The notes under the pieces are model-generated. The model had not been told where the DNA came from, did no database searches, and saw nothing but the letters and a program-made list of their open reading frames with translations. A program made the translations under genes and the position numbers. From Gammaproteobacteria bacterium (GTDB taxonomy: Bacteria > Pseudomonadota > Gammaproteobacteria > CAKMZV01), in the NCBI GenBank assembly GCA_965277775.1, contig OZ255843.1:583451-647450 (forward strand): DNA of 64,000 bases, given 5' to 3'. The first letter of the stretch is position 1. Every line of letters begins with the position of its first letter. Of the stretch, positions 8,291 to 59,695 are shown one piece after another.

Positions 8291-9375
8291 AACCCTTACC
8301 CAACTTGAATCGTTTAAGCGCATGGTCGCCGGACTTGTGCGCTTTGGTGTGCATACACATTCATGCGGAAAATCACAACGTTAAAAGCTTTACCTTTCAG
8401 TCTGTTAAACCCGCCTACTTCGAGTTTTTGCCTGGACAGAACATTACCTTGTTGTTGCCCATCGATGGTGAAGAAGTGGCGCGTACTTACACCATTGCCT
8501 CCAGCCCCACCAAACCCCATACCATCACGATTACCAATAAACGTATGAAGGGCGGCGTTGTCACTGAATGGATGCACCAGCATTTAAAAGTGAGGGATGA
8601 GTTGTCGGCGCTGTCCATATCAGGATTGTTCAGTGTTGCAAATGATGACCATGCGCAACAAAAACCCCTGTTATTGCTGTCTGGTGGCAGCGGCATCACC
8701 CCCATGTTATCGTTCAGTCGCTATTGCCATGATTTGGGACTCACCACCGATATTGCCTTCGCCCATCATGCACAATCAACCGCTGATTTCATTGCCTTTG
8801 AAGAATTGCAATATTACCAAAATCGGCACGATCATTTTCACCTGCATTTGGCGTGTGATAACGGCGCGCAAGATGCGGATTGGTCGGGTCCAAGCGGTTT
8901 CTTGAACGCCGACATGTTGCAGTCATTGGTGCCCGACTTCGCCCAACGTGCCATCTATTGTTGTGGTCCTGCGCCCTACATGGACAATGTTAAAAAGATT
9001 TTGCACGCTTTGAACTATGACATGGCGTTCTATCATCAAGAAAGTTTTGATTTTGCCCAGTCCAGCGCACAACAAGAAGAAGCCCCAGAGCTTGTATCAG
9101 AAGAAACGTCTAAAGGCGTTAAAATCCACCTCTCCAAAAGCAATAAAACCATTGTTGCAGATAAAGCCATCCCCATTTTGCAATCCCTAAAAAAACAAGG
9201 AATCAAAGTGCCTTTTGCTTGTGCTCAAGGCGTTTGTGGCACTTGCAGAACGCTCAAAGTTTCTGGGGACGTGGACATGAAGCACCAAGGGGGCTTACTG
9301 AAAAAACACGAACAGCAAGGCTATATCCTTATTTGTTGTTCCAAACCAACCACTGACCTGAATTTGGCGCTTTAA
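8287..9375 (+). CDS. gbcB: Glycine betaine monooxygenase reductase component GbcB. It combines a ferredoxin-NADP reductase-like FAD/NAD domain with a C-terminal plant-type 2Fe-2S ferredoxin.
   Basis: ATGA overlap with gbcA. FNR-like RxYT(I) FAD motif (ARTYTIASSP). GGSGITP NAD motif. C-terminal CAQGVCGTCRT...C ferredoxin cysteines. Confidence 0.7.
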   Translation: MKPLPNLNRLSAWSPDLCALVCIHIHAENHNVKSFTFQSVKPAYFEFLPGQNITLLLPIDGEEVARTYTIASSPTKPHTITITNKRMKGGVVTEWMHQHLKVRDELSALSISGLFSVANDDHAQQKPLLLLSGGSGITPMLSFSRYCHDLGLTTDIAFAHHAQSTADFIAFEELQYYQNRHDHFHLHLACDNGAQDADWSGPSGFLNADMLQSLVPDFAQRAIYCCGPAPYMDNVKKILHALNYDMAFYHQESFDFAQSSAQQEEAPELVSEETSKGVKIHLSKSNKTIVADKAIPILQSLKKQGIKVPFACAQGVCGTCRTLKVSGDVDMKHQGGLLKKHEQQGYILICCSKPTTDLNLAL

Positions 9376-15346: not shown

Positions 15347-15733
15347 TTATCGTTTTTGTGATCTAGCAGCGATCACTTTTAAAACGGCCTTTTTTATTGC
15401 AATTCTGCTTATTTTTCCTTTTTTAGGTGCTGATTGTACAATTCTATTGGTATTGGCGGCTTTCGCAAGTGTTTTACCTGCGGAAGATTTTGATTTTGGC
15501 GATGCATTTGGACTTCTAAGGGTCTTTGCTGCCTTGGTTGTTGCTGCTTTCGTTAATGTTCTACCTGCGGAAGGCTTTGATTTTGGCGATGTATTTGAGC
15601 TTCTTAGGGTTTTTGCAGCTTTCGCAAGTGTTTTACCTGCGGAAGATTTTGATCTTGGAGATGCATTTGGATTTCTAAGGGTTTTTGCTGCCTTGGTTTT
15701 TGCTGCTTTTGAAGGTGATTTTTTAACGGGCAT
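15347..15733 (-). CDS. Lys/Ala-rich histone-H1-like (AlgP/Hc1-type) DNA-binding protein with three imperfect 24-29-aa tandem repeats.
   Basis: 128 aa, very basic. Repeats of AKTLRxxNxSP(K/R)SK(S/P)SAG(K/R)TL(A/T)KAA. It ends 4 nt before the start of the TIR-like gene, so the two form an operon. Confidence 0.5.
   Translation of the reverse strand: MPVKKSPSKAAKTKAAKTLRNPNASPRSKSSAGKTLAKAAKTLRSSNTSPKSKPSAGRTLTKAATTKAAKTLRSPNASPKSKSSAGKTLAKAANTNRIVQSAPKKGKISRIAIKKAVLKVIAARSQKR
15458..15688 (-). repeat. Three imperfect tandem DNA repeats (72-87 nt units) encoding the KA-rich repeats of the H1-like protein.
   Basis: TACCTGCGGAAG...TTTGATTTTGGCGATG...TTCTAAGGGT recurs at about 15475, 15562 and 15634. 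The antisense ORF 15447..15767 is an artefact of this repeat. Confidence 0.8.
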
Positions 15734-16022: not shown

Positions 16023-18458
16023 TTAGAATAATTTTTTGAGTTTATCTTCAACCGCGTCTTTGAGTTGCTTTTCAGCCTTATTTTGTTGCTCTTTGCGTTG
16101 CTTTTCAGCTTCAATTTGTTGCTCTTTGATGGCTTCTTCAATGCGTTTTTGTTCCTCAAGCAAACGGTTTTGTTCTATCAGTGTTTGGATGTCAAAACGG
16201 CGCAGTGATTCGATCTTTGACCGTTTGGAGTTTAGCAGTTGAGTGGTATTGTCCAAGTCGATCATCTTTTTATTGAAGTCTTCTATGTACGATTTGCGCA
16301 AGTCTGAAAGCTTGCGTCGTGCTTCGTTCTCAAAATCACTGCGAAATTCTTTAAAAACAGACTTTAAAGCGCCACCTAACTTGGCATCCAAATCTGAGTT
16401 AAAACCAATGTCGGGCGCGCCCAGTGAACCTCCAAAATCGATCTGTATGGAAAAGTCATTAAAGTCATTTAAAGCGTTCACCACGTATTTGCCTTCGGCC
16501 AAGGTTCTATAGCCATAAGTGTCCCAAGAAATGTCTTTATAATTGTACGCCAATTGCCCCTGTAGCTGATTATTGGCATCAATCCTCAGTTGGCCTTTAA
16601 TCTGCTCCTTGCCCCTATCTATGATCAGTGGCAGTTTCTCTTCTTGTAGCACAGTGAATTGTTCAATGCGTTTATCCAATTGATCAAAGTGCCATTCAGA
16701 AAATCCAGCACCTGACACGCGATAATCAAACACCCCATTCACCGTCAAAGGCACAGCGGATTTTTCAGCAAATGAAAGTTCGGAAATCATACCACTACCT
16801 TGGTGGTCAAAATGAAGGTTATGTCCCTCACCAATCCATTCTTTATCTTTAAATAAAGCGCTGATGTGTGTTTTTTTGATGTTGAAGCTGGGTTGAATAT
16901 CATATTCCTTAAAAGTGACCACTGTGCCTTTAAATACCAGGCTCGGGCTCTCATTTTTTCTTTGTTCACGCTCATTAAACCAAGTGACAGCATACTCGAT
17001 GATTGGCTCAGCTTTGACATACCATTCTCCCGCCGTATCAAATCGTTCAATCACATCTGGACCCAGAATGAGTTTGCCCAAATTGCCTAAGCCATCGTTG
17101 TTTAACTGGTATTGTGAAAGTAGGTTATTAATATCTTGGTCAATCGCACCATTTAAGTTTCGAATGTCGGTATTGACAACGTTCTGCTTGGCTGATAAAT
17201 CTTCATAAGCCAAGCTAATGGCCGCTTGTTGATCGGTCAATTTTTGCTTGAGGCTGTTCCAATGTTGATTCGCATCGGCAAGGGCTTGCGGATTGTTTAA
17301 ATCAACGCCCTTAAGCGATTCAATTTCTTGTTCTATAAACTTCAATTGCGCATCATCCAAAAAGACACTTTGGGTATTACGATAGGTCTTCTCTAAATCA
17401 TCAATTTTTAATTGCAAATCGACAATTTTTTGATTGAATGAAAGATTTGACTGAGCGATAATTTGGTCAATATCGGGTGTGGCAAGATCTGGCATTGTGA
17501 ACGTATCTTGCGCTGTTTTTGGTTCTGCGCCTGCCTCATCCACTACACTGTTTGATTCTGCCGCGGCCCCATTTTGTGGCGTATAAGGAACCGTTCTTAG
17601 CTGATCAAAGCTCATCCCTTTGAGTGTGAACTCCTCCACCACCCATCGACCGACAATGTAATGGTAAGTGCTGATAGACATTCTCAATTGTTGAATTTCA
17701 AATTGATTGCGCTTTACATCGTCTGGGTCTGCAACACTCACGCCTGTTAGCTCAAAAGCGAAGGGAATCACAGAAAATTGCACGCCTGAAATGCTGATCG
17801 GTGCTTGCCACAGAACAGACAATTGTTTTTCTAATTGATCTTTGATGAGATTTGAGCTTAGAAGCCAGTAAAAACCAAAACCGAGCGCCACAATCACACT
17901 GAGCAAGCTTATCTTTAGCTTTGAAAACCATGGCGATTTAGCTGAACTTTGCTGTACTCCAAGGATTTTGGTCACAAAGGATAACTTAGAGTTTTGAATT
18001 TTTTGAATCAACGCCAAATTTTGAACCCCTTTTAGGACGCGTTCACGGTACACTTTCAGCGTCAACCAAACAACAAAGAACAAGGGGATAATCAGCACCC
18101 AAGAGAGTATAAAACTGCCCAAAACAACAGAATCATTAAATCGAAAGAAACGCCAGATGGGATCGTTGTAAGCACCCGTCCAAAAAGCGCTTAGACTCGG
18201 AAGCTGTAACAGCCACAGTCCGAACACATCAAAAATAGGGAAAAGCACCAGCGCGGCAACCTCACTGAGTCCCCAACCCAAGACAAAGACGTTGTTGTTT
18301 ACTCTAAACAACATATAAAGTATCACAACGATGGCGTTGTGCGGTGACAGTAAGGGGGTAATGCCTATTAAACAGCCCAAACAGAGCGCAAATGCCCTTT
18401 GCGCAGGTGTACCTTCATTGACGAAGACTTTTAAATAATCAAACGATTCAAATTTCAT
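16023..18458 (-). CDS. Large membrane protein. The N-terminus is DUF2062-like and multi-pass. It is fused to a long TIGR03545/DUF748-like periplasmic region with a C-terminal coiled coil.
   Basis: 811 aa. N-terminal TPAQRAFALCLGCLIGITPLLSPHNAIVVILYMLFRVNN matches the DUF2062 signature. The C-terminus is K/E/Q-rich coiled coil (KRIEEAIKEQQIEAEKQRKEQQNKAEKQ). Confidence 0.45.
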   Translation of the reverse strand: MKFESFDYLKVFVNEGTPAQRAFALCLGCLIGITPLLSPHNAIVVILYMLFRVNNNVFVLGWGLSEVAALVLFPIFDVFGLWLLQLPSLSAFWTGAYNDPIWRFFRFNDSVVLGSFILSWVLIIPLFFVVWLTLKVYRERVLKGVQNLALIQKIQNSKLSFVTKILGVQQSSAKSPWFSKLKISLLSVIVALGFGFYWLLSSNLIKDQLEKQLSVLWQAPISISGVQFSVIPFAFELTGVSVADPDDVKRNQFEIQQLRMSISTYHYIVGRWVVEEFTLKGMSFDQLRTVPYTPQNGAAAESNSVVDEAGAEPKTAQDTFTMPDLATPDIDQIIAQSNLSFNQKIVDLQLKIDDLEKTYRNTQSVFLDDAQLKFIEQEIESLKGVDLNNPQALADANQHWNSLKQKLTDQQAAISLAYEDLSAKQNVVNTDIRNLNGAIDQDINNLLSQYQLNNDGLGNLGKLILGPDVIERFDTAGEWYVKAEPIIEYAVTWFNEREQRKNESPSLVFKGTVVTFKEYDIQPSFNIKKTHISALFKDKEWIGEGHNLHFDHQGSGMISELSFAEKSAVPLTVNGVFDYRVSGAGFSEWHFDQLDKRIEQFTVLQEEKLPLIIDRGKEQIKGQLRIDANNQLQGQLAYNYKDISWDTYGYRTLAEGKYVVNALNDFNDFSIQIDFGGSLGAPDIGFNSDLDAKLGGALKSVFKEFRSDFENEARRKLSDLRKSYIEDFNKKMIDLDNTTQLLNSKRSKIESLRRFDIQTLIEQNRLLEEQKRIEEAIKEQQIEAEKQRKEQQNKAEKQLKDAVEDKLKKLF

Positions 18459-41511: not shown

Positions 41512-41796
41512 CCGTTGAAACCGTATTAAAACGGCGACTTCATTGTAGCAAACCAGCCAGAATTTAACCCAATTTCCTTTTCGCCCTGTTTACGAAGGAA
41601 GTGCTAAACGTAGCAACACGGAGCGGTCTTCAACCCATTTCTAATTTAATATAAACGTTCTGTGCAAATGAGGAAAGAATTCTCAGATAATATTTCACTT
41701 AGAAAAAATAGGGTATTTAAGCACTCTAATAAAATAGATAAAATATAATCAGAATGCTTAGAGTTCACCCTTTTTAATCGACTTGACAGTAGCAAC

Positions 41797-42165
41797 ATGG
41801 AAGATGTCTATCACAATCCAAAAAATTATGACCAAAGCAACTTAGACCGTTTTGCAGACAATGTGAAACTGGATCGTTCCCCTGATGATTTGTTGGCTCA
41901 AGTCATGTTGGATTGGGGCTTACCCCTATCGCTTAAAATTGAACAAGCGACCATCTGTGGCAAAAACGTATTCAAAGTGGCAGAAAACTCGCTTTACGCT
42001 TGTTTTGATGTGGGCATAGACGAAGACTTTGCCAAAGCCATCGCAAAAGAAGCCCCTTTAAGGTTTGTGTTTAAAGACAGTTGTTTTAAGAGTGATACAG
42101 CCAAAATCAATGTACAGCAATTGTTCAAACAATTGAGCCCCACAACTGAAATGAAAGTCATTTAA
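41797..42165 (+). CDS. Small (122 aa) protein of unknown function. First gene of the Res-like cassette.
   Basis: Preceded by an AT-rich promoter-like region. Its stop is 1 nt before the next gene start. The frame opens only at 41749, so it is not an obvious in-frame remnant of a longer gene. Confidence 0.4.
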   Translation: MEDVYHNPKNYDQSNLDRFADNVKLDRSPDDLLAQVMLDWGLPLSLKIEQATICGKNVFKVAENSLYACFDVGIDEDFAKAIAKEAPLRFVFKDSCFKSDTAKINVQQLFKQLSPTTEMKVI

Positions 42166-42166
42166 A

Positions 42167-44149
42167 GTGAAAGAGTATTCCGCTGAACAACTATTTGACT
42201 TGCTCAACCAGCAAGATGAATGTAGTTGGATAGAGGCCAAAAAAGCGCATGATAAAGCCAGTTCAGCCATGGAAACCGTGTGCTCATTTTCCAATGAACC
42301 CTTTCTTGGTGGTGGATATATTTTGCTTGGTGTCGCAGAAACCAATGCCTCTTCACCACCAAGGTATAAAACAATTCATATTGATGATCCAGATACAGTC
42401 CAAAAAGACTTTGCTTCCCAGTGTAGCACCATGTTCAATATCCCTATAAGACCCATAATATCAGTTGAGAAAGTACATGGAGATACAGTCATCAAAGTAG
42501 CCGTTGAAGAATTAGAGCCGCAACAAAAACCACTTTATTTCAAAAATAGAGGGCTATCCAAAGGTGCCTATCGTAGAGTTGGTTCCACGGACCAAAGATG
42601 CACTGAGGATGATTTGAGAATATTCTATAAAGACGATACAAGTTACGATCAAACTTCTATTCAAGGAGTCACATTGGATGATGTGGATAAAGATGCTCTG
42701 AAAATGTACAGGACTCTAAGAGGGAAAGTAAATCCTACGGCAGTAGAATTAAATTATGCTGATGATGAGCTATTGGGAGCGCTCGGATGCGTTAATAAAA
42801 AAAATGAAAATGAACTCAACTTAGCAGGCTTAATACTCTTTGGAACATCGAAAGTTTTGCGATCAAGCATGCCTATGGCTCGAGCAGACTATATTCGAGT
42901 GCCAGGCAATGAGTGGATTGAAAATCCCGATGATCGCTTCACTACCATAGACATGCGGGGCCCTCTTCTAACGCTTATCTTTAGGCTTATAGAGGCTGCA
43001 AATTCAGATTTGCCTCAAGGTTTTCTATTACCTGAAGGAAAAATTCAGGCAACTTCTGTAGGCTTGCCTACTAAGGTCCTTCGTGAAGCCATCGTTAATG
43101 CCGTCATGCACAGATCTTATCGAGTGCATAGACCTATTCAAGTGATTCGATACGATAATCGAATTGAGATCATCAATCCAGGCTACTCTCTAAAATCCGA
43201 AGACTTGTTAGGCGAACCAGGAAGCGAAATTAGAAACCCTTTCATTGCAGAAGTTTTTCATGAAACTAATTTAGCAGAGACAAAAGGTTCTGGTATCAGA
43301 GCCATGAGAAAATTAATGACTCAATCTCATCTTGCACCACCTACTTTTGATTCAGATAGGGACGGCAACCAATTTGTCTCTCGCCTACTACTGCATCATT
43401 TCTTGGATGAAGAAGACGTAAAATGGTTAAGCCAATATGAAGGCTTTAAATTGGGTGATGGGCAGAAGCAGGCTTTGATTTTTGCACGTGAGACTGGAGC
43501 GATTGATAATAGAACTTATCGTCAGATGAACGATTGTGACACTCTGAAAGCCAGTACAGAATTAAGGGTTCTAAAATCAACCAATCTGTTGACTCAAAAG
43601 GAAAAAGGGAAGGCCGCTTATTATGTCCCTGGTCCAAAATTGAATATGTCAATTCAAGAAATAAGTACACCACCTCAAGAAATAAGTACACCACCTCAGG
43701 AAATAAGTACACCACCTCAGGAAATAAGCACACCACCTCAGGAAATAAGTACACCACCTCAAGAAATAAGTAAACCATCTCAAGAAATAAGTACACAACC
43801 TCAGGAAATAAGTACACAACCTCAGGAAATAAGTACACAACCTCAGGAAATAAGTACACAACCTCAGGAAATAAGTACACTACCTCAGATTAGCGGAGCA
43901 CTTAAAATTAGAATAAATGCTTTAAAAGAAAGGGAGCATAATCCGAAGAAAATTGAGGCGATTATTCTTGAAATATGTGCAGCTGGCTTTGTGCAAGCAA
44001 CCCATGTTGCTGAAATTCTAAAGAGGGGGGAGGATTATGTAAAACGTAAATATTTAGGTCCGATGATTAAGGACAAAAGATTGGTTTATAGGCATCCTGA
44101 TATGCTCAATCACCCGAATCAAGCCTACAAATCTAATAAAAATTCATAA
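42167..44149 (+). CDS. AlbA_2 (Schlafen-like 'divergent AAA') + HATPase_c_4 protein with two C-terminal winged-helix modules separated by a heptapeptide-repeat linker.
   Basis: N-terminal E..IEAKK...FSNEPFLGGGYILLGV...YRRVGSTD signature of AlbA_2. Central REAIVNAVMHRSY...RIEIINPG (HATPase_c_4). Then wHTH-like segments. (QEISTPP)x11 repeat at aa ~497-573. Confidence 0.6.
   Translation: MKEYSAEQLFDLLNQQDECSWIEAKKAHDKASSAMETVCSFSNEPFLGGGYILLGVAETNASSPPRYKTIHIDDPDTVQKDFASQCSTMFNIPIRPIISVEKVHGDTVIKVAVEELEPQQKPLYFKNRGLSKGAYRRVGSTDQRCTEDDLRIFYKDDTSYDQTSIQGVTLDDVDKDALKMYRTLRGKVNPTAVELNYADDELLGALGCVNKKNENELNLAGLILFGTSKVLRSSMPMARADYIRVPGNEWIENPDDRFTTIDMRGPLLTLIFRLIEAANSDLPQGFLLPEGKIQATSVGLPTKVLREAIVNAVMHRSYRVHRPIQVIRYDNRIEIINPGYSLKSEDLLGEPGSEIRNPFIAEVFHETNLAETKGSGIRAMRKLMTQSHLAPPTFDSDRDGNQFVSRLLLHHFLDEEDVKWLSQYEGFKLGDGQKQALIFARETGAIDNRTYRQMNDCDTLKASTELRVLKSTNLLTQKEKGKAAYYVPGPKLNMSIQEISTPPQEISTPPQEISTPPQEISTPPQEISTPPQEISKPSQEISTQPQEISTQPQEISTQPQEISTQPQEISTLPQISGALKIRINALKEREHNPKKIEAIILEICAAGFVQATHVAEILKRGEDYVKRKYLGPMIKDKRLVYRHPDMLNHPNQAYKSNKNS
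43655..43885 (+). repeat. Eleven head-to-tail copies of a 21-nt unit (CAAGAAATAAGTACACCACCT and variants) inside the AlbA_2 gene. They encode QEIS(T/K)(P/Q/L)(P/S).
   Basis: Exact tandem periodicity read directly. The first 5 units are nearly identical (one silent change in unit 4). Units 7-10 share a CCA to CAA change. The antisense ORF 43446..43880 (YLFPEVV repeats) is an artefact. Confidence 0.9.
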
Positions 44150-44151
44150 AA

Positions 44152-47100
44152 ATGAAACTACAGTTTAAAGAACAAGATTTCCAAATAGAAGCGGTCAAAG
44201 CAGTGGTTGATTGTTTTGAGAGGCAGCCGCTCAAAACCAATAGCTTCACCTTAGAACGCAGCAAAGCACTCATCCAAAAAGCCAAACAAACAGACATGAA
44301 CCCAGGAATTTTGGATTTTGCATTAGAGGAATATATTGGCTATCGTAACTCTGCCATTCAAATAACAGAAGACCAAATGCTTGGCAACATTAAAAAAGTT
44401 CAAAATAGGAATAACCTGCATGAAAGCCAGCAATTAGAACGTCCCAACGGCGTAAAATCAGGCTACAACCTAACCATCGAAATGGAAACAGGTACAGGTA
44501 AAACCTATGTCTATATCCGCACCATGTATGAGTTGCATAAAAAGTATGGTTGGAGCAAATTTATTGTTGTAGTACCCAGCATTGCCATCCGCGAAGGGGT
44601 GTACAAATCCTTTCAAGTGACCCAAGATCATTTTCAAGAATGCTACAAGCACAAAATCAAACCATTTATTTATCATTCAGGTTGCCCGCAAGATATTGAG
44701 AATTTTGCCTCAGATAACCGAATCAGCGTGATGATCATCAATACACAGGCGTTCAATGCACGGAGCAAAGATGCACGACGGATCCATCAAGAATTAGATC
44801 AATTCGGCACTCGAAAACCCATAGATATTATTGCTCAAACCCAGCCCATCCTGATCATTGATGAACCACAATCGGTTGATGGTAAAAAGACTTTAGAGAG
44901 CATGCAGGATTTTAAACCGCTGTTCACACTGCGCTATTCAGCCACGCACAGAGAGGACTATAACAAGATTTATCGTTTAGATGCCTTGGATGCCTACAAA
45001 AAACAATTGGTTAAGAAGGTACAGGTAAAGGGCATCAATCTTATAAATTCAACTGGCACAACAGGTTATATTTACTTAGAAAACATTAACCTAAGCACCA
45101 CAAAACCACCCCTTGCTTGGATAGAACATGAAAAAAGAAGCAAAAGTGGCGACATTTCTACAAAGCGAGTGAAAATTGCTGAAGGCTACAACATTTATGA
45201 GCAGTCAGGCAAAATGCCCGCCTATAAAAACCAAACGGTCACAGAAATAGATGGCTATCTTAATAAAATAACCGTAGGTGGTCAAGATATCTACCCCGGA
45301 AATATTCTCAATAACCACTATGATCATACTTTTCGCACCGTCCAAATTCGGGAATGCATCCAATCGCATCTACAAAAGGAAAAGCAACTCTTTGGTCGGG
45401 GCATTAAAGTGCTTTCTCTGTTCTTTATTGATGCGGTAGAGAAATACAGAATTTATGATGAATTCGGTGCGCAACAATTGGGCGAATACGCCCAGATATT
45501 TGAAGAGGAATATAAAGAAATAAGAGCCAAACTAAGGGACACTAAATTGAAAGGTTTTGATGAGTACTTAATGCGTGATGCCCCATCAGAGGTACATCAG
45601 GGTTACTTTTCCATAGACAAGAAAGGCAAGACGATTGATCCTATAGTAAAGCGTGGTAAAGAAGAATCCGACGATGTTTCAGCCTACGATCTAATTATGA
45701 AGGATAAAGAAAGGTTGCTTAGTTTTGATGAACCGACCCGTTTTATCTTTTCACATTCTGCCTTAAGGGAAGGCTGGGACAACCCCAATGTTTTTCAAAT
45801 TTGTGCCCTCAAACACGCAGGAAGTGGCAGTGCTACAAGACGCAGGCAAGAAGTCGGGCGAGGCATGCGCTTGAGCGTTGATAAATTCGGTGTACGACAA
45901 GGCTTTGAGTTGGTCGGTGAACAAGTACATGAATTGAATAAACTCACAGTCATTGCTTCCGAGAGTTACGAGGCTTTTGCCAAAGGACTGCAGAAGGAAA
46001 TTGCCGACACACTCAAAGACCGTCCGCAGAAAGCGGAAATAGACTTCTTTACCGGCAAGGTAGTAACCGACGCGCATGGCATTAAATATAGACTAACCGA
46101 AGAAGAGTCTAAGAAACTCAATAAATTTCTATACAAAGACGATGTAATTGATGAAGACGACAAGATTACGCCTGAAGGCAAAGAATTGATTGAAAGGCAA
46201 CAAATACCGCTTCCTGAAAGTTTAGAATCTTACCGTGAATCTATATGTGCGTTATTGCAGACCATTTACACAGAGACAGACTTAAGCCCTGAGGATGAGC
46301 GTCAATCAGTCACATTTAACACTAATCGTAATTTTGAGAGGAAAGAATTTCAGGCGCTATGGAATAAAATCAATCTAAAGACCATTTATGAAGTGCAATT
46401 CGATACTGACAAGCTGGTTCAAGAAGGGAAAAACAAGATTGATGAACAACTCAACATTGGTCGTTCAGAATACGAGCATGAGGATGCGTACCAAGTAAGA
46501 TCAGCTAATATTGAACGCAGTTCGGTCGATCAGATGAAAAACGCCGACTTGCCGCCTGTATCAGAAAGCAAAACGGTATCCGTTGAAAATAAAAAACACT
46601 CCCTCGCTGTTTACGATGTGATGGGTGAGATTGAAGCTCAAACACATCTAACTCGAAGGACGATTGTAGAAATTCTCAAGCAGATAAAACCTGAAAAATT
46701 TTTACTCTTACATAAGAATCCAGAAGCGTTCATTGCCAAATGTAGCAGACTGATCAATGAGGCAAAATCCAGTTTAATCATCAATAACATCAAGTACCAT
46801 AAAACCGAAGAAAAGTATGATGCCACGACGGTTTTTACTAATGATAAATCCGCTTTACGTCAGTCAGAAAACTTCAAAAAGCACATTTATGATTGCTTAA
46901 CTTCTGACTCAAAAGTTGAATCGGATTTTGCCGCCAACTTAGAATGTAGCACCGAAGTGGTCGTTTATGCAAAACTTCCCAAAAGTTTTTATGTTGCTAC
47001 GCCTATCGCCAACTATAGCCCCGACTGGGCCATCGTATTTGATAAAGAACAAGTACGTTATATTTATTTCGTAGCAGAAACCAAAGGCTCTGATAAAGAG

Positions 47101-47247
47101 GAGGATTTAAGAGCGATTGAAAAACTAAAAATTCACTGTGCTGAGAAACATTTTGAAGAAATAAGCGGCGGGAAGGTCATATTTAAAATGATCGCCAGTT
47201 ACAGCACTTTAAGTGATGTTCTTTGTTGGAAAAGCAAACATTCATAG
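44152..47247 (+). CDS. Type III restriction enzyme Res-subunit-like protein. It has an N-terminal SF2 helicase (ResIII) and a C-terminal PD-(D/E)xK endonuclease. No cognate Mod methyltransferase is present.
   Basis: 1031 aa. Walker A METGTGKTYV (~aa 113). DExx box ILIIDEPQS (~aa 235). C-terminal nuclease motif YSPDWAIVFD...IYFVAETKG (D ... ExK). It starts 3 nt after the AlbA_2 gene. Confidence 0.7.
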   Translation: MKLQFKEQDFQIEAVKAVVDCFERQPLKTNSFTLERSKALIQKAKQTDMNPGILDFALEEYIGYRNSAIQITEDQMLGNIKKVQNRNNLHESQQLERPNGVKSGYNLTIEMETGTGKTYVYIRTMYELHKKYGWSKFIVVVPSIAIREGVYKSFQVTQDHFQECYKHKIKPFIYHSGCPQDIENFASDNRISVMIINTQAFNARSKDARRIHQELDQFGTRKPIDIIAQTQPILIIDEPQSVDGKKTLESMQDFKPLFTLRYSATHREDYNKIYRLDALDAYKKQLVKKVQVKGINLINSTGTTGYIYLENINLSTTKPPLAWIEHEKRSKSGDISTKRVKIAEGYNIYEQSGKMPAYKNQTVTEIDGYLNKITVGGQDIYPGNILNNHYDHTFRTVQIRECIQSHLQKEKQLFGRGIKVLSLFFIDAVEKYRIYDEFGAQQLGEYAQIFEEEYKEIRAKLRDTKLKGFDEYLMRDAPSEVHQGYFSIDKKGKTIDPIVKRGKEESDDVSAYDLIMKDKERLLSFDEPTRFIFSHSALREGWDNPNVFQICALKHAGSGSATRRRQEVGRGMRLSVDKFGVRQGFELVGEQVHELNKLTVIASESYEAFAKGLQKEIADTLKDRPQKAEIDFFTGKVVTDAHGIKYRLTEEESKKLNKFLYKDDVIDEDDKITPEGKELIERQQIPLPESLESYRESICALLQTIYTETDLSPEDERQSVTFNTNRNFERKEFQALWNKINLKTIYEVQFDTDKLVQEGKNKIDEQLNIGRSEYEHEDAYQVRSANIERSSVDQMKNADLPPVSESKTVSVENKKHSLAVYDVMGEIEAQTHLTRRTIVEILKQIKPEKFLLLHKNPEAFIAKCSRLINEAKSSLIINNIKYHKTEEKYDATTVFTNDKSALRQSENFKKHIYDCLTSDSKVESDFAANLECSTEVVVYAKLPKSFYVATPIANYSPDWAIVFDKEQVRYIYFVAETKGSDKEEDLRAIEKLKIHCAEKHFEEISGGKVIFKMIASYSTLSDVLCWKSKHS

Positions 47248-53503: not shown

Positions 53504-56500
53504 ATGTATCAATTATTGCTCAGATGTTTCACCCAATCCTTTGTCAGCTTTTCTTTTCAATGGAGCACCACCAATCGAATAATAAACACTTTTAAGCGCG
53601 TATTGAGTTCAATCAATAAACGCGTGCTGAGCTCAATGTGCTCGACCCTGGTATTATTCGCAATGTTATCCGCAATGTTATCCGCATGTGGTGGCGGCGG
53701 CGGCGGTGGTGAGCCGACACCAACGCCGACACCGACACCAACTCTGACACCAACGCTTTCGGTTTTGTTCCCGAGCTTGAGAGTCGATGAAGACTTCCCA
53801 GTAACTTTGGTGGTTGCCACTGCAACCAATGCAACAAATTTAACGGTCGATCAATCCACCACTGGGGTGATTACTGTGGCGCCAACAACAAACTCAGTGA
53901 CAGTTTCAAGCTTTGCCAATGGCAATGGACAAACCACTTTAACCATTGTCGCCACCAATAGTTCGGGTAGCACGACTGCACAAGTGGTCGTGACAGTAAA
54001 TGCTGTCAATGATCCACCAACAATAGCTGTCTCAAGCAATAGCATTTCAACTGTGGGAGGCTTTTCGCCGATTACCATTAACACCACAGCAAGTGATATT
54101 GAAGATGCCCATTTATCTTTCACCGTGATGGATGCCAATACAAGGGTAGTCAGAATAACCACATCAGCAGCGACTATTGTGTTAAATACCATCCCTGGTG
54201 CTTCAGGCCAGACCACCTTAACCGTCATTGTGGTTGATAGCTCGGGAGCAACAGTTACTCAATTCATCACTGTCAGTGTGACCATTACGGTCAGTGCCAC
54301 ACCGGTGGTGACAGTTTCTACTAATTTGATTAGCGTGCAAGAAGACTTTAGGGCTTTGGTCATCATCCAAACCACAGCAACGGATGCTGATGGTGATGCC
54401 ATAACCCTATCTGTAAGTTCATCCTCGCGTTTAGTTGATGTAGTTATATCCACACCAAACAACAGCACCAACACCATCACCAATAGCATCACCTTATCGG
54501 CGGTTGCCAATGCCAATGGCACAGCAACCTTGACTGTGTTAGCAACCGATGCGGGTGGGCAGTCTACTAATACTGAGATTATTGTCGTGGTATCGTCTGT
54601 TCAAGATACACCGACCTTAACCATACCATCTACGACTTTAACCGTAGCAGAAGATTTTGCGAGTGCTCTAACCATTGCCACAGCAAATGATAGTGATGGT
54701 GATACGCTCCTGATAAGTGTGGTTGAAACCACCACGGGCGTAGTCATGGTCACAACCTCAGCCTCAGGGGTGTTTGTGTCAAGCATACTCAATGCGAATG
54801 GGCAAACCACATTAACGATAACCGTCAATGATGGCACACAAGATACAACGGCTCAAGTGGTAGTCGACGTCACGCCTGTTAATGACCCACCGACCTTGAC
54901 CATCCCGAGTGCAACATTAACAGTCTTAGAAGATTTTGTGGGTGCTATGACGATTGCCACAGCAACCAATGTTGACAGCAATACGCTCACTTTTACTGTG
55001 ACTGAATCAAACTCAACGGTAGTCAATGTAACAACCACAGCCATAGGCGTCTCTATATCAAACATTCTCAATGCCAATGGACAAACCACCCTAACCATTG
55101 CTGTCAATAATGGCAATCTGAGTTCTACCGATCAAGTGATTGTGACTGTGATAGCTGTCAATGATACGCCTACATTAACCGTCTCAACGAATGATATTTC
55201 AACGAATGCTGACTTTTCAACGATCACTATTAATACCACTGCGAGTGATGTCGATGAAGGCACTTTAACTTTCGCTGTGACTGTTTCTACCACTGGAGTG
55301 GTCAGAGTATCCACTTCCTCGAATGCCATTATTTTGAACGCCATCCCTGATACGACAGGTACAACGACTTTAACCGTCCATACAATCGACAATTCTAGGC
55401 TGATGGCTACGCAAACAATTGTAATCAATGTGTCACCTATTCCAAATCTTTTCCCTGTTCTGATGATTTCCACTACCCGAATCAACGTTCAAGAAAATTT
55501 TATGAAACCAGTGATCATCCGAACCACTGCTACAGATGCTGAGGATGGAACCATTACCCTTTCTGTGAGTTCATCCTTGCCTCTTGTGAATATCGTTCTA
55601 TCATCACCAGACAACGGCGAAAGCACCATAACTAATAGAATCACTTTAACTGCGGTTGATAATCTTAATGGCAAGACAACCTTAACTGTGCTTGTAACAG
55701 ATGCTGGAAAGCAAGTCACCTCTACTGAGATTGTGGTGGTCATAAATTCCGTAATTGACCCTATATCGTTTACCTTATCCACCTCTGTCGTCACCTTGTC
55801 AGCTCTCGGCAATCAACTCAATCGTAATGTACAAAGCATAATTATTAGCAACCCAGGCAATGAATCCTTAAGGACTCAGTGGCAGGTTTTGAGTAGTGGA
55901 AGCCCACTCTTTTCAGCCAATCCAGCCCCAGTGGTGAGTTTTACCACCAATATCCTAACAACCACAGCCACCTTGACCTCAGCGGCATCAACGGCACAAT
56001 TGTATTTTACGATCAGGCCAGATCGTACTGGTACGGCCACGCTGACCATACAATTGACTGATCTGGATACTTCAATAACGACACAACAAACCATAGTGGT
56101 ACACGTCAATTCAGTCAATGTGCCTCCAGTTATTGCACCATATAACTCAAATCTTTATAATTATGTTATTTATGGTGGCCGAATATATGCCAATTCTATT
56201 CAAAGCGTACAATCACTAAACCCATTATTAACCGAAGCCAGAGCTTTGGGTGGGCAATTGATTAACTTCAATTCAGATGAAGAGTATCGATTTATACTTG
56301 GTGCAGCAATAGAAACTCAAAATACTTGGTGGGGTTTGGTTTTACCGCAACGAGAATTCCCTGGTGAGCTGTCTTGGATAACACACAACAGCACCATTTC
56401 TTATGGGTATGCCAGCACCAATGGCATCACTAACCTCACTGTATATCCTGGTCAATACCCATTGCCCTGGGCGACTGTTGCTAGTGGTAATGGACTAATT

Positions 56501-59500
56501 GCCAATAGAGGTGGAAGCGCCACTGCTGTCAATGGGACGGTTTACTCCGACGGTGCTTTTTTATTCTTATTAGGAGAGGGTGGGGATGGTAGTTCACGTA
56601 TTGGGCTTTTTGAATTTCCTCAAGGCTTATTAGAAGCTTCAAACATTCAAACCTATGTTGCAGCTGGCTCAGTTGCAACCGTGAGATTGACCGGTTTTGA
56701 TTTAAATGCTGATGCGATACAAACATCTGATTGGTCTGCGGTGGCAACCGCTGGTACAGTAATATTTAATCAGGTGTCACAAAGCACTGGGATTCAAAGC
56801 GTGGACATGATGTACACCCCACCAGCTAATTTTAACAGCCAATCAACCGTTGTCGTCACACTAGACGTGAATGGCCAAAACACTACCACTGCCCTATTGT
56901 TTAGATTGGATAGTTTTCCAATTATTGACTTATCAACAAATGCCATTTCGATTACCGAAGATTTTACTAACTTAGTTATTGGTACGACCATAACAGATGA
57001 GATCGATGGGACCCTACCATTTACCGTGCGATCTTCTAACTTAAATGCGCTAATCATAACCACCTCAGCAAATGCCATTCGACTATCAGGGGCGCTCAAT
57101 TTCAACGGTACAGTCACTTTGACTGTTCGGGCAGCAGACTCTGCTCAGCAGATCGCTTTTACAACGGTCGTGATTTCAGTTCAGGAAGTGAATGACCCCC
57201 CAACATTAATGGTTTCAACCGATAACATTTCACTTTTGGGTGGCTTTGCACCCTTCACCATTGCCACGACAGCCACTGATATTGAGCAGGGTGCTTTACC
57301 CTTTACAGTACAAGCATCACCTCAAAGTGTCGTCTCCATAAGCACTCGTACCAATGCCATTGTGTTGTCCCCCATAGTAGAGGCGGGCTCAGGTCAAACC
57401 ACCTTGACCGTCACAACAATCGATCGTTTTAATGCCATAGCAACCCAAACCATTGCAATCAATTTAATCGTGTTACCAAGCTCGACACCCGTGTTGACTG
57501 TTTCCACCAACATACTCAGCTTGCAAGAGGATTTTACTGATTTTGTCATCAGAACCACGGCCTCAGATGTCGATTCAGCGACCTTGGTCATAACAGTGAG
57601 TTCGTCAACGCAATTAGTCGATGCCATGATTTCGACTCAAATGATCACATTGCGTTCAGTGGCTAATTTATTTGGTACGACCACCCTAACCGTCCGTGCG
57701 ACGGATTCTGGGGGATTATTCGACACGACAGAAATTGTTGTCGTGGTGAACTCTGTTAATGATAGGCCAACTTTAACCGTCTCAACGCACACAGTCACTT
57801 TAGGGGCACCTCCTTCCTCCGTTATTCTGTCTGTATCAGCCAGGGATGTGGAGGATGGCATCTTATCTTTCAGCGTTTCGACGGGTTCAAGCCTTATTAA
57901 TTCAACAAACACCACCACAACTTTAACCATAACGCGATTGAACTTGGATGCAGCTCAAGCCGTTTTAACCCTCAGAGCGACCGACTCAATGGGCGATTCG
58001 ACAATAACCACAATTAGTGTCGTGCCACAGCCAGTATTATTTGTGACAACTGGCATTAAGACCCTTGATTTTGCTTGGAGTGCGGTCTCTACGGCAACGC
58101 ATTATCGCTTACGAAGTAATCCGGATGGCAACTCAGGGTATGTGGATTTGAGCACCACAGGTATGGTGGTTAGTCCGAATAGCACTAATATTAGGCAAAC
58201 CACTGCGCAGGGTTTGGTCTCCTTACATCGCTACATCCCAAGAGTAAACAATCCACAGTTTGGCATAAATACCTGCAATGCAAGCTCGTGTAGCACCTCA
58301 TTTGAGCACAATACAATAAACTTAACCAATGCACAACTGAACAGTCTGATTGGTCGATTGCAAGCCAGTAACGCTGCAACAGGTGCTCGTTTTGGCTATT
58401 CTGTGAGTTTGAATGGTGATGGTAACACCCTTGCTGTGAGCGCAAATTCAGAAGGTACAGGTGCTCGCCTTTCAGGAGCGGTGTATGTGTTCCAGCGTAA
58501 TGGGCGAGATTGGTCACAACAAGCATTCATCAAACCATCAAATAGTTCAGCGTTTCTTCTATTTGGTAGTTCTGTGAGTTTGAGTGGCGATGGCAATACG
58601 CTTGCGGTGGGCGCAGATCAGGAAAGCAATTCAGCTACTGGCGTAAATGGTGCTATAAATCAAGGATTTGTGCTCGCATCGGGCGCGGTATATGTATTCC
58701 GTCGTAATGGAACTGACTGGACACAACAAGCATACATCAAAGCCTCGAATACGGGTGCAAATGATGAATTTGGACTGGCTTTGAGTTTAAGCGCTGATGG
58801 CAATACACTTGCAGTGGGCGCACGATTTGAGGATAGCACCTCCAATCTAATTAATAGTGGAGAATCTAATAACAGCGCAACTAATGCAGGGGCGGTGTAT
58901 GTATTCCGCTTCAGTAGTAGCACATGGTCACAGCAAGCATACATCAAAGGATTGAATACGAGAGTGGGCAATTTATTTGGTCAATCTGTGAGTCTAAGTG
59001 CAGTTGGAAATACGCTTGCGGTGGGGGCAACTGGTGAAGACAGTGCTTCCACCCAGGTCAACAGCGGTGGAACCGATATAAATGCAGCCGATGCAGGTGC
59101 AGCATATGTATTCCGCTTTAGTAGTAGCACGTGGTCACAACAAGCATACATCAAAGCCTCAAATACTGGTTCTGGCGATTTGTTTGGTCAATCTGTCAGT
59201 CTAAGTGCAGATGGTAATACGCTTGCTGTGGGCGCAATGAATGAGGACAGTGCTTCCAATCAGATCAACAGTGGAGAAACTGATTCAAATGCAACCGATG
59301 CAGGTGCGGTGTATGTATTCCGCTTCAGCAGTAGCACCTGGTCACAACAAGCCTATATAAAAGCTTCAAATACAGGTGCTGGCGATTTGTTTGGTCAATC
59401 TGTGAATCTAAGCACAAATGGCAATGTGCTTGCGGTGGGGGCAAATCGGGAAGATAGTATAGCCTCTGGGATTGTAACAACTGAAGATAATCAATCGCTT

Positions 59501-59695
59501 GATTCAGGTGCAACCTATGTGTATGAATTCAGCAATGGCACCTGGACTCATCAAGCCAGAATCAAAAGTAGTGACGGCTTCTTCGCTGTAAGAGCTGAAT
59601 TTGGTTTCTCTGTAAGTTTAAGCGGAGACGGTGGCACACTTGCGGTAGGTGCAAGTCGTTTGACTTCTAATACTGGCGGGGTTTACTTGTATTAA
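53504..59695 (+). CDS. Giant surface lipoprotein/adhesin. It has about 14 cadherin/Ig-like (VxxVNDxPT-type) repeat domains, a cysteine-less C-type lectin-like domain, an FN3-like module and a C-terminal 7-blade FG-GAP (integrin-alpha-like) beta-propeller.
   Basis: 2063 aa. Lipobox LSAC followed by a Gly run and a PT-rich linker. Repeated ~95-aa modules start VNAVNDPPT / VTPVNDPPTLT / VIAVNDTPTLT. CTLD-like WxEA...GGQLINFNSDEEYRFI...WWGL. Seven FG..S.SLSGDGNTLAVGA...GAVYVF blades. A likelier signal-peptide start is MCSTLV at about 53635. Confidence 0.7.
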   Translation: MYQLLLRCFTQSFVSFSFQWSTTNRIINTFKRVLSSINKRVLSSMCSTLVLFAMLSAMLSACGGGGGGGEPTPTPTPTPTLTPTLSVLFPSLRVDEDFPVTLVVATATNATNLTVDQSTTGVITVAPTTNSVTVSSFANGNGQTTLTIVATNSSGSTTAQVVVTVNAVNDPPTIAVSSNSISTVGGFSPITINTTASDIEDAHLSFTVMDANTRVVRITTSAATIVLNTIPGASGQTTLTVIVVDSSGATVTQFITVSVTITVSATPVVTVSTNLISVQEDFRALVIIQTTATDADGDAITLSVSSSSRLVDVVISTPNNSTNTITNSITLSAVANANGTATLTVLATDAGGQSTNTEIIVVVSSVQDTPTLTIPSTTLTVAEDFASALTIATANDSDGDTLLISVVETTTGVVMVTTSASGVFVSSILNANGQTTLTITVNDGTQDTTAQVVVDVTPVNDPPTLTIPSATLTVLEDFVGAMTIATATNVDSNTLTFTVTESNSTVVNVTTTAIGVSISNILNANGQTTLTIAVNNGNLSSTDQVIVTVIAVNDTPTLTVSTNDISTNADFSTITINTTASDVDEGTLTFAVTVSTTGVVRVSTSSNAIILNAIPDTTGTTTLTVHTIDNSRLMATQTIVINVSPIPNLFPVLMISTTRINVQENFMKPVIIRTTATDAEDGTITLSVSSSLPLVNIVLSSPDNGESTITNRITLTAVDNLNGKTTLTVLVTDAGKQVTSTEIVVVINSVIDPISFTLSTSVVTLSALGNQLNRNVQSIIISNPGNESLRTQWQVLSSGSPLFSANPAPVVSFTTNILTTTATLTSAASTAQLYFTIRPDRTGTATLTIQLTDLDTSITTQQTIVVHVNSVNVPPVIAPYNSNLYNYVIYGGRIYANSIQSVQSLNPLLTEARALGGQLINFNSDEEYRFILGAAIETQNTWWGLVLPQREFPGELSWITHNSTISYGYASTNGITNLTVYPGQYPLPWATVASGNGLIANRGGSATAVNGTVYSDGAFLFLLGEGGDGSSRIGLFEFPQGLLEASNIQTYVAAGSVATVRLTGFDLNADAIQTSDWSAVATAGTVIFNQVSQSTGIQSVDMMYTPPANFNSQSTVVVTLDVNGQNTTTALLFRLDSFPIIDLSTNAISITEDFTNLVIGTTITDEIDGTLPFTVRSSNLNALIITTSANAIRLSGALNFNGTVTLTVRAADSAQQIAFTTVVISVQEVNDPPTLMVSTDNISLLGGFAPFTIATTATDIEQGALPFTVQASPQSVVSISTRTNAIVLSPIVEAGSGQTTLTVTTIDRFNAIATQTIAINLIVLPSSTPVLTVSTNILSLQEDFTDFVIRTTASDVDSATLVITVSSSTQLVDAMISTQMITLRSVANLFGTTTLTVRATDSGGLFDTTEIVVVVNSVNDRPTLTVSTHTVTLGAPPSSVILSVSARDVEDGILSFSVSTGSSLINSTNTTTTLTITRLNLDAAQAVLTLRATDSMGDSTITTISVVPQPVLFVTTGIKTLDFAWSAVSTATHYRLRSNPDGNSGYVDLSTTGMVVSPNSTNIRQTTAQGLVSLHRYIPRVNNPQFGINTCNASSCSTSFEHNTINLTNAQLNSLIGRLQASNAATGARFGYSVSLNGDGNTLAVSANSEGTGARLSGAVYVFQRNGRDWSQQAFIKPSNSSAFLLFGSSVSLSGDGNTLAVGADQESNSATGVNGAINQGFVLASGAVYVFRRNGTDWTQQAYIKASNTGANDEFGLALSLSADGNTLAVGARFEDSTSNLINSGESNNSATNAGAVYVFRFSSSTWSQQAYIKGLNTRVGNLFGQSVSLSAVGNTLAVGATGEDSASTQVNSGGTDINAADAGAAYVFRFSSSTWSQQAYIKASNTGSGDLFGQSVSLSADGNTLAVGAMNEDSASNQINSGETDSNATDAGAVYVFRFSSSTWSQQAYIKASNTGAGDLFGQSVNLSTNGNVLAVGANREDSIASGIVTTEDNQSLDSGATYVYEFSNGTWTHQARIKSSDGFFAVRAEFGFSVSLSGDGGTLAVGASRLTSNTGGVYLY
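58881..59413 (+). repeat. Three consecutive ~180-nt near-identical DNA repeats encoding beta-propeller blades 3-5.
   Basis: Long identical runs recur three times (GTATGTATTCCGCTTCAGTAGTAGCAC(A/G/C)TGGTCACA(G/A)CAAGCATACATCAAAG, CAATCTGT(G/C)AGTCTAAGTGCAG). Confidence 0.75.

Follow-up and report, generated by a model that had tools for sequence, protein, structure and literature searches.

We analysed a stretch of 64,000 nucleotides (nt) of contig OZ255843.1 from a Gammaproteobacteria bacterium (the window), in which a tandem array of eleven 21-nt units (43655..43885, + strand) encodes a linker made of seven-residue units. The array occupies residues 497-573 of a 660-amino acid open reading frame (ORF) at 42167..44149 (+), hereafter gene X, as delimited with Tandem Repeats Finder, AlphaFold2 and motif counts. 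Gene X stands between the remnant of a mod gene and the res gene of a restriction-modification (R-M) system of Type III and, according to its Pfam matches, homologues and relatives in the PDB, it codes for a prokaryotic Schlafen of the SLFN + GHKL-like ATPase + helix-turn-helix (HTH) class. We think it probable that the array is a variable number tandem repeat (VNTR) encoding a disordered tether of Pro/Ser/Thr-rich heptads that joins the Schlafen core to a C-terminal winged-helix module, with length variation of the slippage type, a loosely constrained length and no on/off switching.

The heptad array and its variation

Tandem Repeats Finder detected a single array at this place, in frame within gene X (43654-43888; period of 21, 11.2 copies, 94% matches, 0 indels, score of 386), and the longest exact self-match at an offset of 21 extended over 76 nt. 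The units translate, in order, as five copies of QEISTPP, one QEISKPS, four copies of QEISTQP and one QEISTLP. Units 1-5 differ by synonymous changes only (CAA/CAG, AGT/AGC), a CCA>CAA change (Pro>Gln) is common to units 7-10, unit 11 carries CCA>CTA and unit 6 has two changes. An earlier annotation made from the DNA letters (the sequence-only reading) had described eleven 21-nt units inside an AlbA_2-family gene, the first five near-identical and the last five with shared changes; the repeat search and the Pfam match to SLFN_AlbA_2 confirm the former point, and the substitutions just listed bear out the latter. Allowing up to 2 mismatches, the 14-nt core TAAGTRCACCACCT matched 11 times in the whole window, every time inside the array, against 0.46 matches expected from shuffles, and 11 matches were reached in 0 of 100 shuffles. 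Minus-strand ORFs overlapping the array (43446..43880 and 43649..43861) were treated as by-products of the stop-free repeat.

Array copy number shifts in whole 21-nt units between otherwise identical alleles and, therefore, the reading frame is kept. Proteins P0019, P0026, P0036 and P0054 show 100% identity outside the linker and have 7, 6, 5 and 2 units, respectively (56, 49, 42 and 21 aligned residues), while the members of the pairs P0029/P0038 and P0010/P0022 likewise differ only in the number of linker units. P0008 (3 units, found in 12 contigs) and P0271 (4 units, in 11 contigs) are otherwise identical (608/608 residues). At the DNA level, one locus with the order mod-X-small ORF-res, 99.5-100% identical over 7-7.8 kb, occurs with 7 units in three JGI samples, with 6 in JGI and ENA (SPAdes) assemblies and with 2 in two ENA (MEGAHIT) assemblies. 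Over 7.8 kb, loci L015 and L020 have 3 mismatches and 4 gap openings between them; a 21-bp unit of gene X and a 12-bp unit of the following ORF's linker are among these gaps. Thus, 100%-identical alleles differ by 1-5 units, which exceeds their point divergence and is what characterizes a hypermutable in-frame VNTR. The expectation in the sequence-only reading that slippage would alter linker length rather than kill the gene agrees with this whole-unit variation. As a separate observation, a Fic-like_C ORF of 147/151 amino acids lies between gene X and res (L015 4996-5439, L020 4975-5430) and has a 12-nt repeat of its own (NQVS, two versus three copies), polymorphic between 99.5%-identical strains.

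Array composition, for its part, turns over faster than the flanks diverge. Two relatives of the window gene were available for comparison: locus L002, the one close relative found in a genome scan, and P0270, found by cluster look-up. The flanks of the array in P0270 are about 95% identical to those of the window gene, and it has 13 units, QELSTPL and QKISTPP among them, with the TQP units of the window absent. Gene X of L002 has 3 units left. A metagenome scan with a 20-nt unit yielded distant family members only (L008-L010) and no close relative.

Heptad arrays are conserved throughout the subfamily. The gene X protein has more than 4500 homologues at E<=1e-10, the best 120 of which (55-72% identity) include named Bacteroidota and Xanthomonadales records. 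In all 120, the same place, between a YY...G anchor and an R-E-H-D helix, is taken by heptads of the form x[LI]S[TA]PPx, numbering from 2 to 13 units (mode, 5); by length, the array of the window ranks in the top three. The linker segment is quantised in sevens, its length being 1 modulo 7 in 58/120. The variable linker of the sequence-only reading therefore stands, since copy number is invariant neither in the family nor among otherwise identical alleles. Using the C-terminal module alone as query we retrieved 757 cluster representatives; among the 121 top ones whose upstream sequence is long enough, a tandem repeat immediately precedes the module in 42, its period being 7 in 41 cases. The units found before the module are diverse (LSAQPTD, LSSELPP, MDKSKPT, TGGSKVx, GLNTHAE and others), with a recurrent [LI]-[SN]-[TA] start. 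Two homologues (P0004 and P0005) have two linkers and two modules per protein. In the Lunatimonas locus L011, the 350-bp gap between gene X and res contains about nine frameshifted heptad-coding units (8895-9206) and the remnant of a second module (..TYPIPDQL); its candidacy as an independent DNA site was rejected, as it corresponds to a decayed, frameshifted second linker and C-terminal module remnant.

The array also forms the 5' edge of a cassette that moves between near-identical cores and spans the linker together with some 60 residues of the C-terminal module. Across the 120 homologues, the identities of the core (residues 1-487) and of the C-terminal module were weakly correlated (r=0.44), and in pairs with at least 90% core identity the module identity was bimodal, near 0.5-0.55 and near 0.85-0.95, with the linker and most of the module swapped between cores 92-98.6% identical. 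P0096 and P0098, for example, have cores 98.6% identical and modules 56% identical: their alignment is the same through YYVAGDGL, diverged in the linker and about 60 residues, and the same again over the last 22 residues. The exchanged modules are of two types, with the first helix ending in REHD or RVND. The first repeat units and the YPEMINHPEQAY-coding end may be the exchange breakpoints. A link of module type to the downstream gene (Res, SNF2 or HsdR) was also considered, and nine contexts revealed no pattern.

Gene X and its Type III cassette

Gene X starts with GTG, 1 nt past the stop of the mod remnant, and its domains follow the order SLFN_AlbA_2, HATPase_c_4 (GHKL-like ATPase), winged helix, linker and C-terminal winged helix. 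The SLFN_AlbA_2 domain (PF04326; residues 18-145, 42218..42601, +) scored 50.7 bits with Pfam, for a gathering cut-off of 25.3, and contains the motif E18-CSWI-E23-A-K25, in which E18, E23 and K25 are invariant across 68 homologues. It corresponds to Ex4ExK, the catalytic motif of Schlafen RNases (PMC13056530). The HATPase_c_4 domain (PF13749, GHKL-type ATPase-like; residues 322-399, 43130..43363, +; Pfam, 65.7 bits) belongs to a family described as an ATP-driven oligomerisation module (bioRxiv 10.64898/2026.05.29.728809). Gene X thus carries SLFN and the GHKL ATPase PF13749 on one polypeptide, followed by an HTH, as do the proteins called Schlatpases with HTH.

The AlphaFold2 model of the protein was computed with a 68-sequence alignment and had a mean predicted local distance difference test (pLDDT) of 66. 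It contains a first winged-helix-like module at residues 431-488 (43457..43630, +), with the succession helix-helix-helix-strand-strand (pLDDT 76-87) and support from Foldseek, and a helical module with a beta wing at residues 577-656 (pLDDT 75-88). Between both, residues 496-570 of the repeat showed pLDDT values of 31-37 and no secondary structure, so that the heptad linker is predicted to be disordered. The C-terminal winged-helix module (residues 574-660, 43886..44146, +) is related to Fic-like_C modules: it aligned with the second C-terminal module of P0004 (27% identity, E 6e-13), which matches Pfam Fic-like_C PF21247. Foldseek matches were, in order, the uncharacterised full-length relative 3lmm, the N-terminal domain 2kyy and then ArsR/MarR-type winged-helix proteins, the latter with target TM-scores of 0.55-0.62; 2kyy was also similar in sequence to the N-terminal domain of the gene X protein (profile E 2.4e-47; 49% identity in the Foldseek alignment). 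AlphaFold2 and Foldseek agree on what the sequence-only reading had proposed for the Pro/Thr-rich heptapeptide, that it is an in-frame linker between two winged-helix-like modules; folded modules are predicted on both sides of the disordered repeat, rather than a disordered tail lacking separated folded modules.

The window locus is a decaying Type III cassette, as its comparison with L002 revealed (OZ255827.1, chromosome of a Gammaproteobacteria metagenome-assembled genome). Both loci are collinear, with 93-96% DNA identity and the same flanking genes. Upstream of gene X, the window retains a mod remnant (41797..42165, +) that consists of the last 122 codons plus the stop, without the catalytic motifs, and is 96% identical to residues 502-623 of the 623-residue L002 Mod, which scored 683 bits against PADLOC MTase_III. 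A tblastn search with the full L002 Mod against the whole window recovered residues 496-623 alone and no other mod. From blastn of L002 against the window and the junction sequences, the junction of a 1.56-kb deletion was located at 41777..41778: positions 8050-9610 of L002, which hold the mod start and about 495 codons, are absent from the window. An intact Mod methyltransferase, with catalytic and S-adenosylmethionine motifs, is therefore missing. Downstream, the res gene (44152..47247, +; 1031 amino acids) has the helicase and endonuclease domains of a Type III Res (Pfam ResIII and RE_endonuc; PADLOC REase_III, 954 bits), and scored 360 bits against the type III endonuclease NCBIfam model, under its cut-off of 564. 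This intact res without mod is an orphan restriction subunit. Type III Res depends on Mod for DNA recognition and, mod being deleted, the Type III R-M system of the window is most likely inactive.

L002 shows another form of decay. It keeps both mod and res and lacks window positions 42362-43814, so that its gene X (L002 10001-10522) encodes 173 residues, with codons 1-65 joined in frame to three heptads and the C-terminal module, residues 66-~549 having been lost. The deletion junction falls within CACCACC, common to codons 63-65 (SSPP; 42354..42360, +, in the window) and a repeat unit. A repeat unit thus participated in this microhomology deletion. Shortened ('mini') forms of gene X that keep the frame occur repeatedly in public data (L002, P0133, P0138, P0148, P0157 and P0131); what they retain is the start of the gene (40-65 codons), a number of heptads and the C-terminal module. 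An intact frame may keep the translation of res coupled to that of gene X, since the res ATG lies 2 nt past the gene X stop and no Shine-Dalgarno-like sequence is apparent. Between the window and L002 (10525-13602), res had a ratio of nonsynonymous to synonymous divergence (dN/dS) of 0.45 with a dS of 0.043, and the flanking housekeeping genes had dS of 0.10-0.20 and dN/dS of 0.04-0.17; this is compatible either with relaxed constraint on res or with a cassette ancestry more recent than that of the flanks.

Across the loci compared, the family gene occurs upstream of a helicase-nuclease gene within Type III or Type I R-M operons. The order is mod-X-res in L003, L011 and L015, res-mod-X-SNF2 helicase-DUF4391 in L004 and L014, and hsdM-hsdS-...-X-hsdR in L012 and L013, which are Type I loci; locus L024 has decayed too. 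These contexts agree with published statements on Schlafens. The pSlfn-HisKinase-HTH architecture accounts for 19.2% of prokaryotic Schlafens and is common near defence genes, and several of the bacterial Schlafen architectures tested defend through tRNA cleavage (PMC13056530). The SLFN+GHKL 'Schlatpase' supradomain, in turn, is exchanged with R-M systems (bioRxiv 10.64898/2026.05.29.728809).

A probable flexible tether and its alternatives

If the array is a VNTR-encoded tether, it would join a core made of the SLFN nuclease-like domain, the GHKL-type ATPase-like domain and the first winged helix to the C-terminal winged helix. Its copy number would change when near-identical units slip during replication or recombine unequally. 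Such a tether would need only flexibility and an unfolded state, so its length would be loosely constrained; length changes would, at most, affect how far the C-terminal module reaches or how many [LI]-[SN]-[TA] motifs are present, and would not turn gene X on or off. As an analogy with those bacterial Schlafens that have been characterised suggests, the C-terminal module might be a sensor or docking module of a latent tRNA-cleaving effector beside an R-M system, the Type III system of this genome presumably being defunct through the mod deletion.

Several points weigh against this interpretation. A flexible spacer accounts neither for the period of 7 in 41/42 diverged arrays before the module nor for the recurrent [LI]-[SN]-[TA] triad, and a passive one leaves unexplained why the same codons, AGT RCA CCA CCT, are used in nine lineages. 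In addition, the function of the Schlafen class with HTH tails is putative, and its C-terminal module is no more than a candidate for sensing or docking. Finally, some of the copy-number differences could be metagenome assembly errors, though the alleles recur across samples and assemblers.

The codon usage of the heptads deserves detail. The core codons [AT]TA AGT RCA CCA CCT are common to nine lineages chosen by protein similarity (the window, L003, L004, L011-L015 and L024), with gene GC contents of 37-49%. Outside the linker, the mean pairwise codon identity over 261 columns of invariant degenerate amino acids was 0.40 (0.30 for Ser and 0.22 for Pro) and none of the four- or six-fold degenerate columns was uniform, whereas within the linker Ser (AGT) and Pro (CCA) were uniform. 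Synonymous sites elsewhere in gene X thus appear saturated. Recombination in the linker, pooling units among alleles, would be the most economical account of this conservation. A possible, if doubtful, alternative goes further and regards the array as a selected device: a codon-conserved recombination junction for the exchange of C-terminal sensor cassettes, in which the number of units sets the valency or reach of the sensor and hence the activation threshold of a latent tRNase. If true, this would be a contingency locus acting on the architecture, rather than the expression, of a cytoplasmic immune protein.

The fixed period can also be read as a multivalent array of short linear motifs, with one [LI]-[SN]-[TA] per seven residues, in which copy number would set valency and not distance; the partner would be a domain belonging to the same oligomer, or else the helicase-nuclease encoded nearby. 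We regard this as unlikely. The strict period of 7 in 41/42 diverged arrays speaks for it, as do the hydrophobic-Ser/Asn-Thr/Ala triad shared by very different unit sequences and the conservation of the heptad sequence across homologues of 55-72% overall identity. However, the partner is hypothetical, AlphaFold2 shows no structure or contact for the repeat region and the fixed period may be inherited passively, as arrays grow and shrink by whole units.

The sequence-only reading had proposed that copy number is an adaptive length switch which sets the distance between two DNA-binding modules and, through it, the target geometry of the associated nuclease or its specificity. This now seems quite unlikely. 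Winged-helix-like modules do flank the array on both sides and copy number does differ between otherwise identical alleles. Moreover, the idea of repeat-set spacing is not without precedent, because in the Type I HsdS of EcoR124I and EcoR124II one TAEL repeat (12 bp) between the recognition domains shifts the target spacer from N6 to N7 (PMC7383803, citing Price et al. 1987 and 1989). As in that protein, the in-frame repeat number between two modules of gene X varies by whole units. Nevertheless, the EcoR124 repeat extends a rigid coiled coil, whereas that of gene X is proline-rich, predicted to be disordered, present in 2-13 units and has no known effect on specificity; two winged-helix modules flank it, but it is not predicted to form a rigid spacer between DNA-recognition domains. 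The predicted disorder of the linker, which provides no rigid ruler like a coiled coil, and the tolerance of 2-13 units argue against a precise geometric setting.

The neighbouring genes point in the same direction. With mod truncated, presumably no working Type III enzyme is left in the window to be tuned, because Res needs Mod. L002 retains mod and res with gene X gutted, and gene X is therefore dispensable for keeping the R-M genes. The family adjoins SNF2 helicases as well as the Res of Type III and the HsdR of Type I systems, and neighbours so varied speak against its acting on the specificity of a single type of enzyme. Tuning of the specificity of an associated nuclease by the repeat thus found no support, given a deleted mod, a linker that is not predicted to be rigid and a wide range of tolerated lengths. 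Likewise, direction of the neighbouring nuclease by the gene X protein is unsupported: L002 keeps mod/res without most of gene X, and the family is also found in Type I loci. The parallel that had been drawn with phase-variable Type III mod genes fails as well, as the repeat lies outside mod, which survives only as residues 496-623. Gene X shares with phasevarions a hypermutable repeat within a Type III R-M operon; in contrast with them, where repeats in mod switch the frame on and off, its repeat belongs to a gene other than mod and has a unit divisible by three, and the window has lost mod by deletion. The window has no frame-shifting simple-sequence repeat in mod.

Conservation of the core codons (Ser AGT, Thr/Ala RCA, Pro CCA and Pro CCT, against the codon identity of 0.40 elsewhere) might also indicate that the array acts as nucleic acid, with the coding of heptads being secondary, either through iteron-like protein-binding sites phased at 21 bp (two helical turns) upstream of res or as an RNA element. 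This is very unlikely: the motif was absent outside linker arrays in the window and the 14 loci searched, RNA folding gave z=+0.18, an Rfam search of the array returned no match and a promoter/terminator scan detected no promoter-like site in the array. The distant member L023 encodes its heptad LSSELPP with other codons, and frequent linker recombination could keep the units of different alleles alike. Because of the different codons of L023, a universal DNA motif was rejected; the idea that TTA/AGT codons serve as sensors of Schlafen cleavage of type II tRNAs was dropped, as the Ile-ATA variants do not fit it and the Nat Microbiol paper states no tRNA specificity with which it could be compared.

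That copy-number variation is an artefact of short-read assembly of perfect tandem repeats is hardly credible, even if the comparison sequences come mostly from metagenome assemblies and the 2-unit allele from two MEGAHIT assemblies only: assembly collapse is unlikely as a general explanation because each allele recurs across samples and assemblers (that with 7 units in three samples, that with 6 in both JGI and SPAdes (ENA) assemblies, and those with 3 and 4 in 12 and 11 contigs, respectively), the arrays, 63-147 bp long, are inside read length, and those of the window, L002 and P0270 differ in composition besides number.

Comparable systems and other repeats of the window

Proline-rich VNTRs that encode interdomain spacers are found in other bacterial proteins, for instance in the Xr region of protein A and in TolA/TonB-type spacers. 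The array of gene X resembles them as an in-frame minisatellite with length polymorphism between strains that encodes an extended, non-globular spacer. However, those are envelope or surface proteins, whereas the gene X product is a cytoplasmic defence protein with a strict 7-residue period and codons conserved across phyla. Among Schlafens, gene X has the same domain order (SLFN_AlbA_2, PF13749, HTH), Ex4ExK motif and defence/R-M neighbourhoods as pSlfn-HisKinase-HTH or Schlatpase, to which it adds a second winged helix behind the 11-unit tether. Term searches of PMC13056530 and bioRxiv 10.64898/2026.05.29.728809 found no mention of a tandem-repeat linker, copy-number polymorphism or C-terminal module exchange. 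Another comparison can be made with PrrC, the anticodon nuclease that the Type Ic locus EcoprrI harbours (PMC1484252, PMC3458546). Like it, gene X encodes a putative NTPase-regulated tRNA nuclease in an R-M operon, beside the restriction subunit and, in the Type I loci L012 and L013, just upstream of it. Unlike PrrC, which combines an ABC-ATPase with an anticodon-nuclease domain, it has SLFN and GHKL domains and neither of those two; there is no sequence relationship and the likeness is one of analogy only.

Bacterial Schlafens have only recently been shown to be antiphage tRNases, and SLFN-HisKinase-HTH is among their commonest architectures. The R-M-embedded members described here have a strictly heptad-periodic, hypervariable tether, which is one of the fastest-changing sites in the locus, and a C-terminal winged helix swapped behind it. 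A hypervariable tether and a swapped module point to a part of the protein under diversifying pressure, probably its sensor or docking end. If copy number affects activation, repeats would have a new way to tune an immune effector without switching it off. The window alone provides a more modest result, a repeat at the upper extreme of a family-wide trait.

Other tandem repeats occur elsewhere in the window. Those at 15536-15688 and 16057-16129 have periods of 72 and 33 nt, 2.1-2.2 copies and 81-87% matches. A 2063-amino acid ORF (53504-59695) has a lipoprotein-like N-terminus, a (PT)n-type stretch (arrays at 53714-53751) and a 207-bp repeat in 2.7 copies (58877-59444) encoding blades that read '..GDGNTLAVGA..', and its product is probably a large surface protein of repetitive nature.

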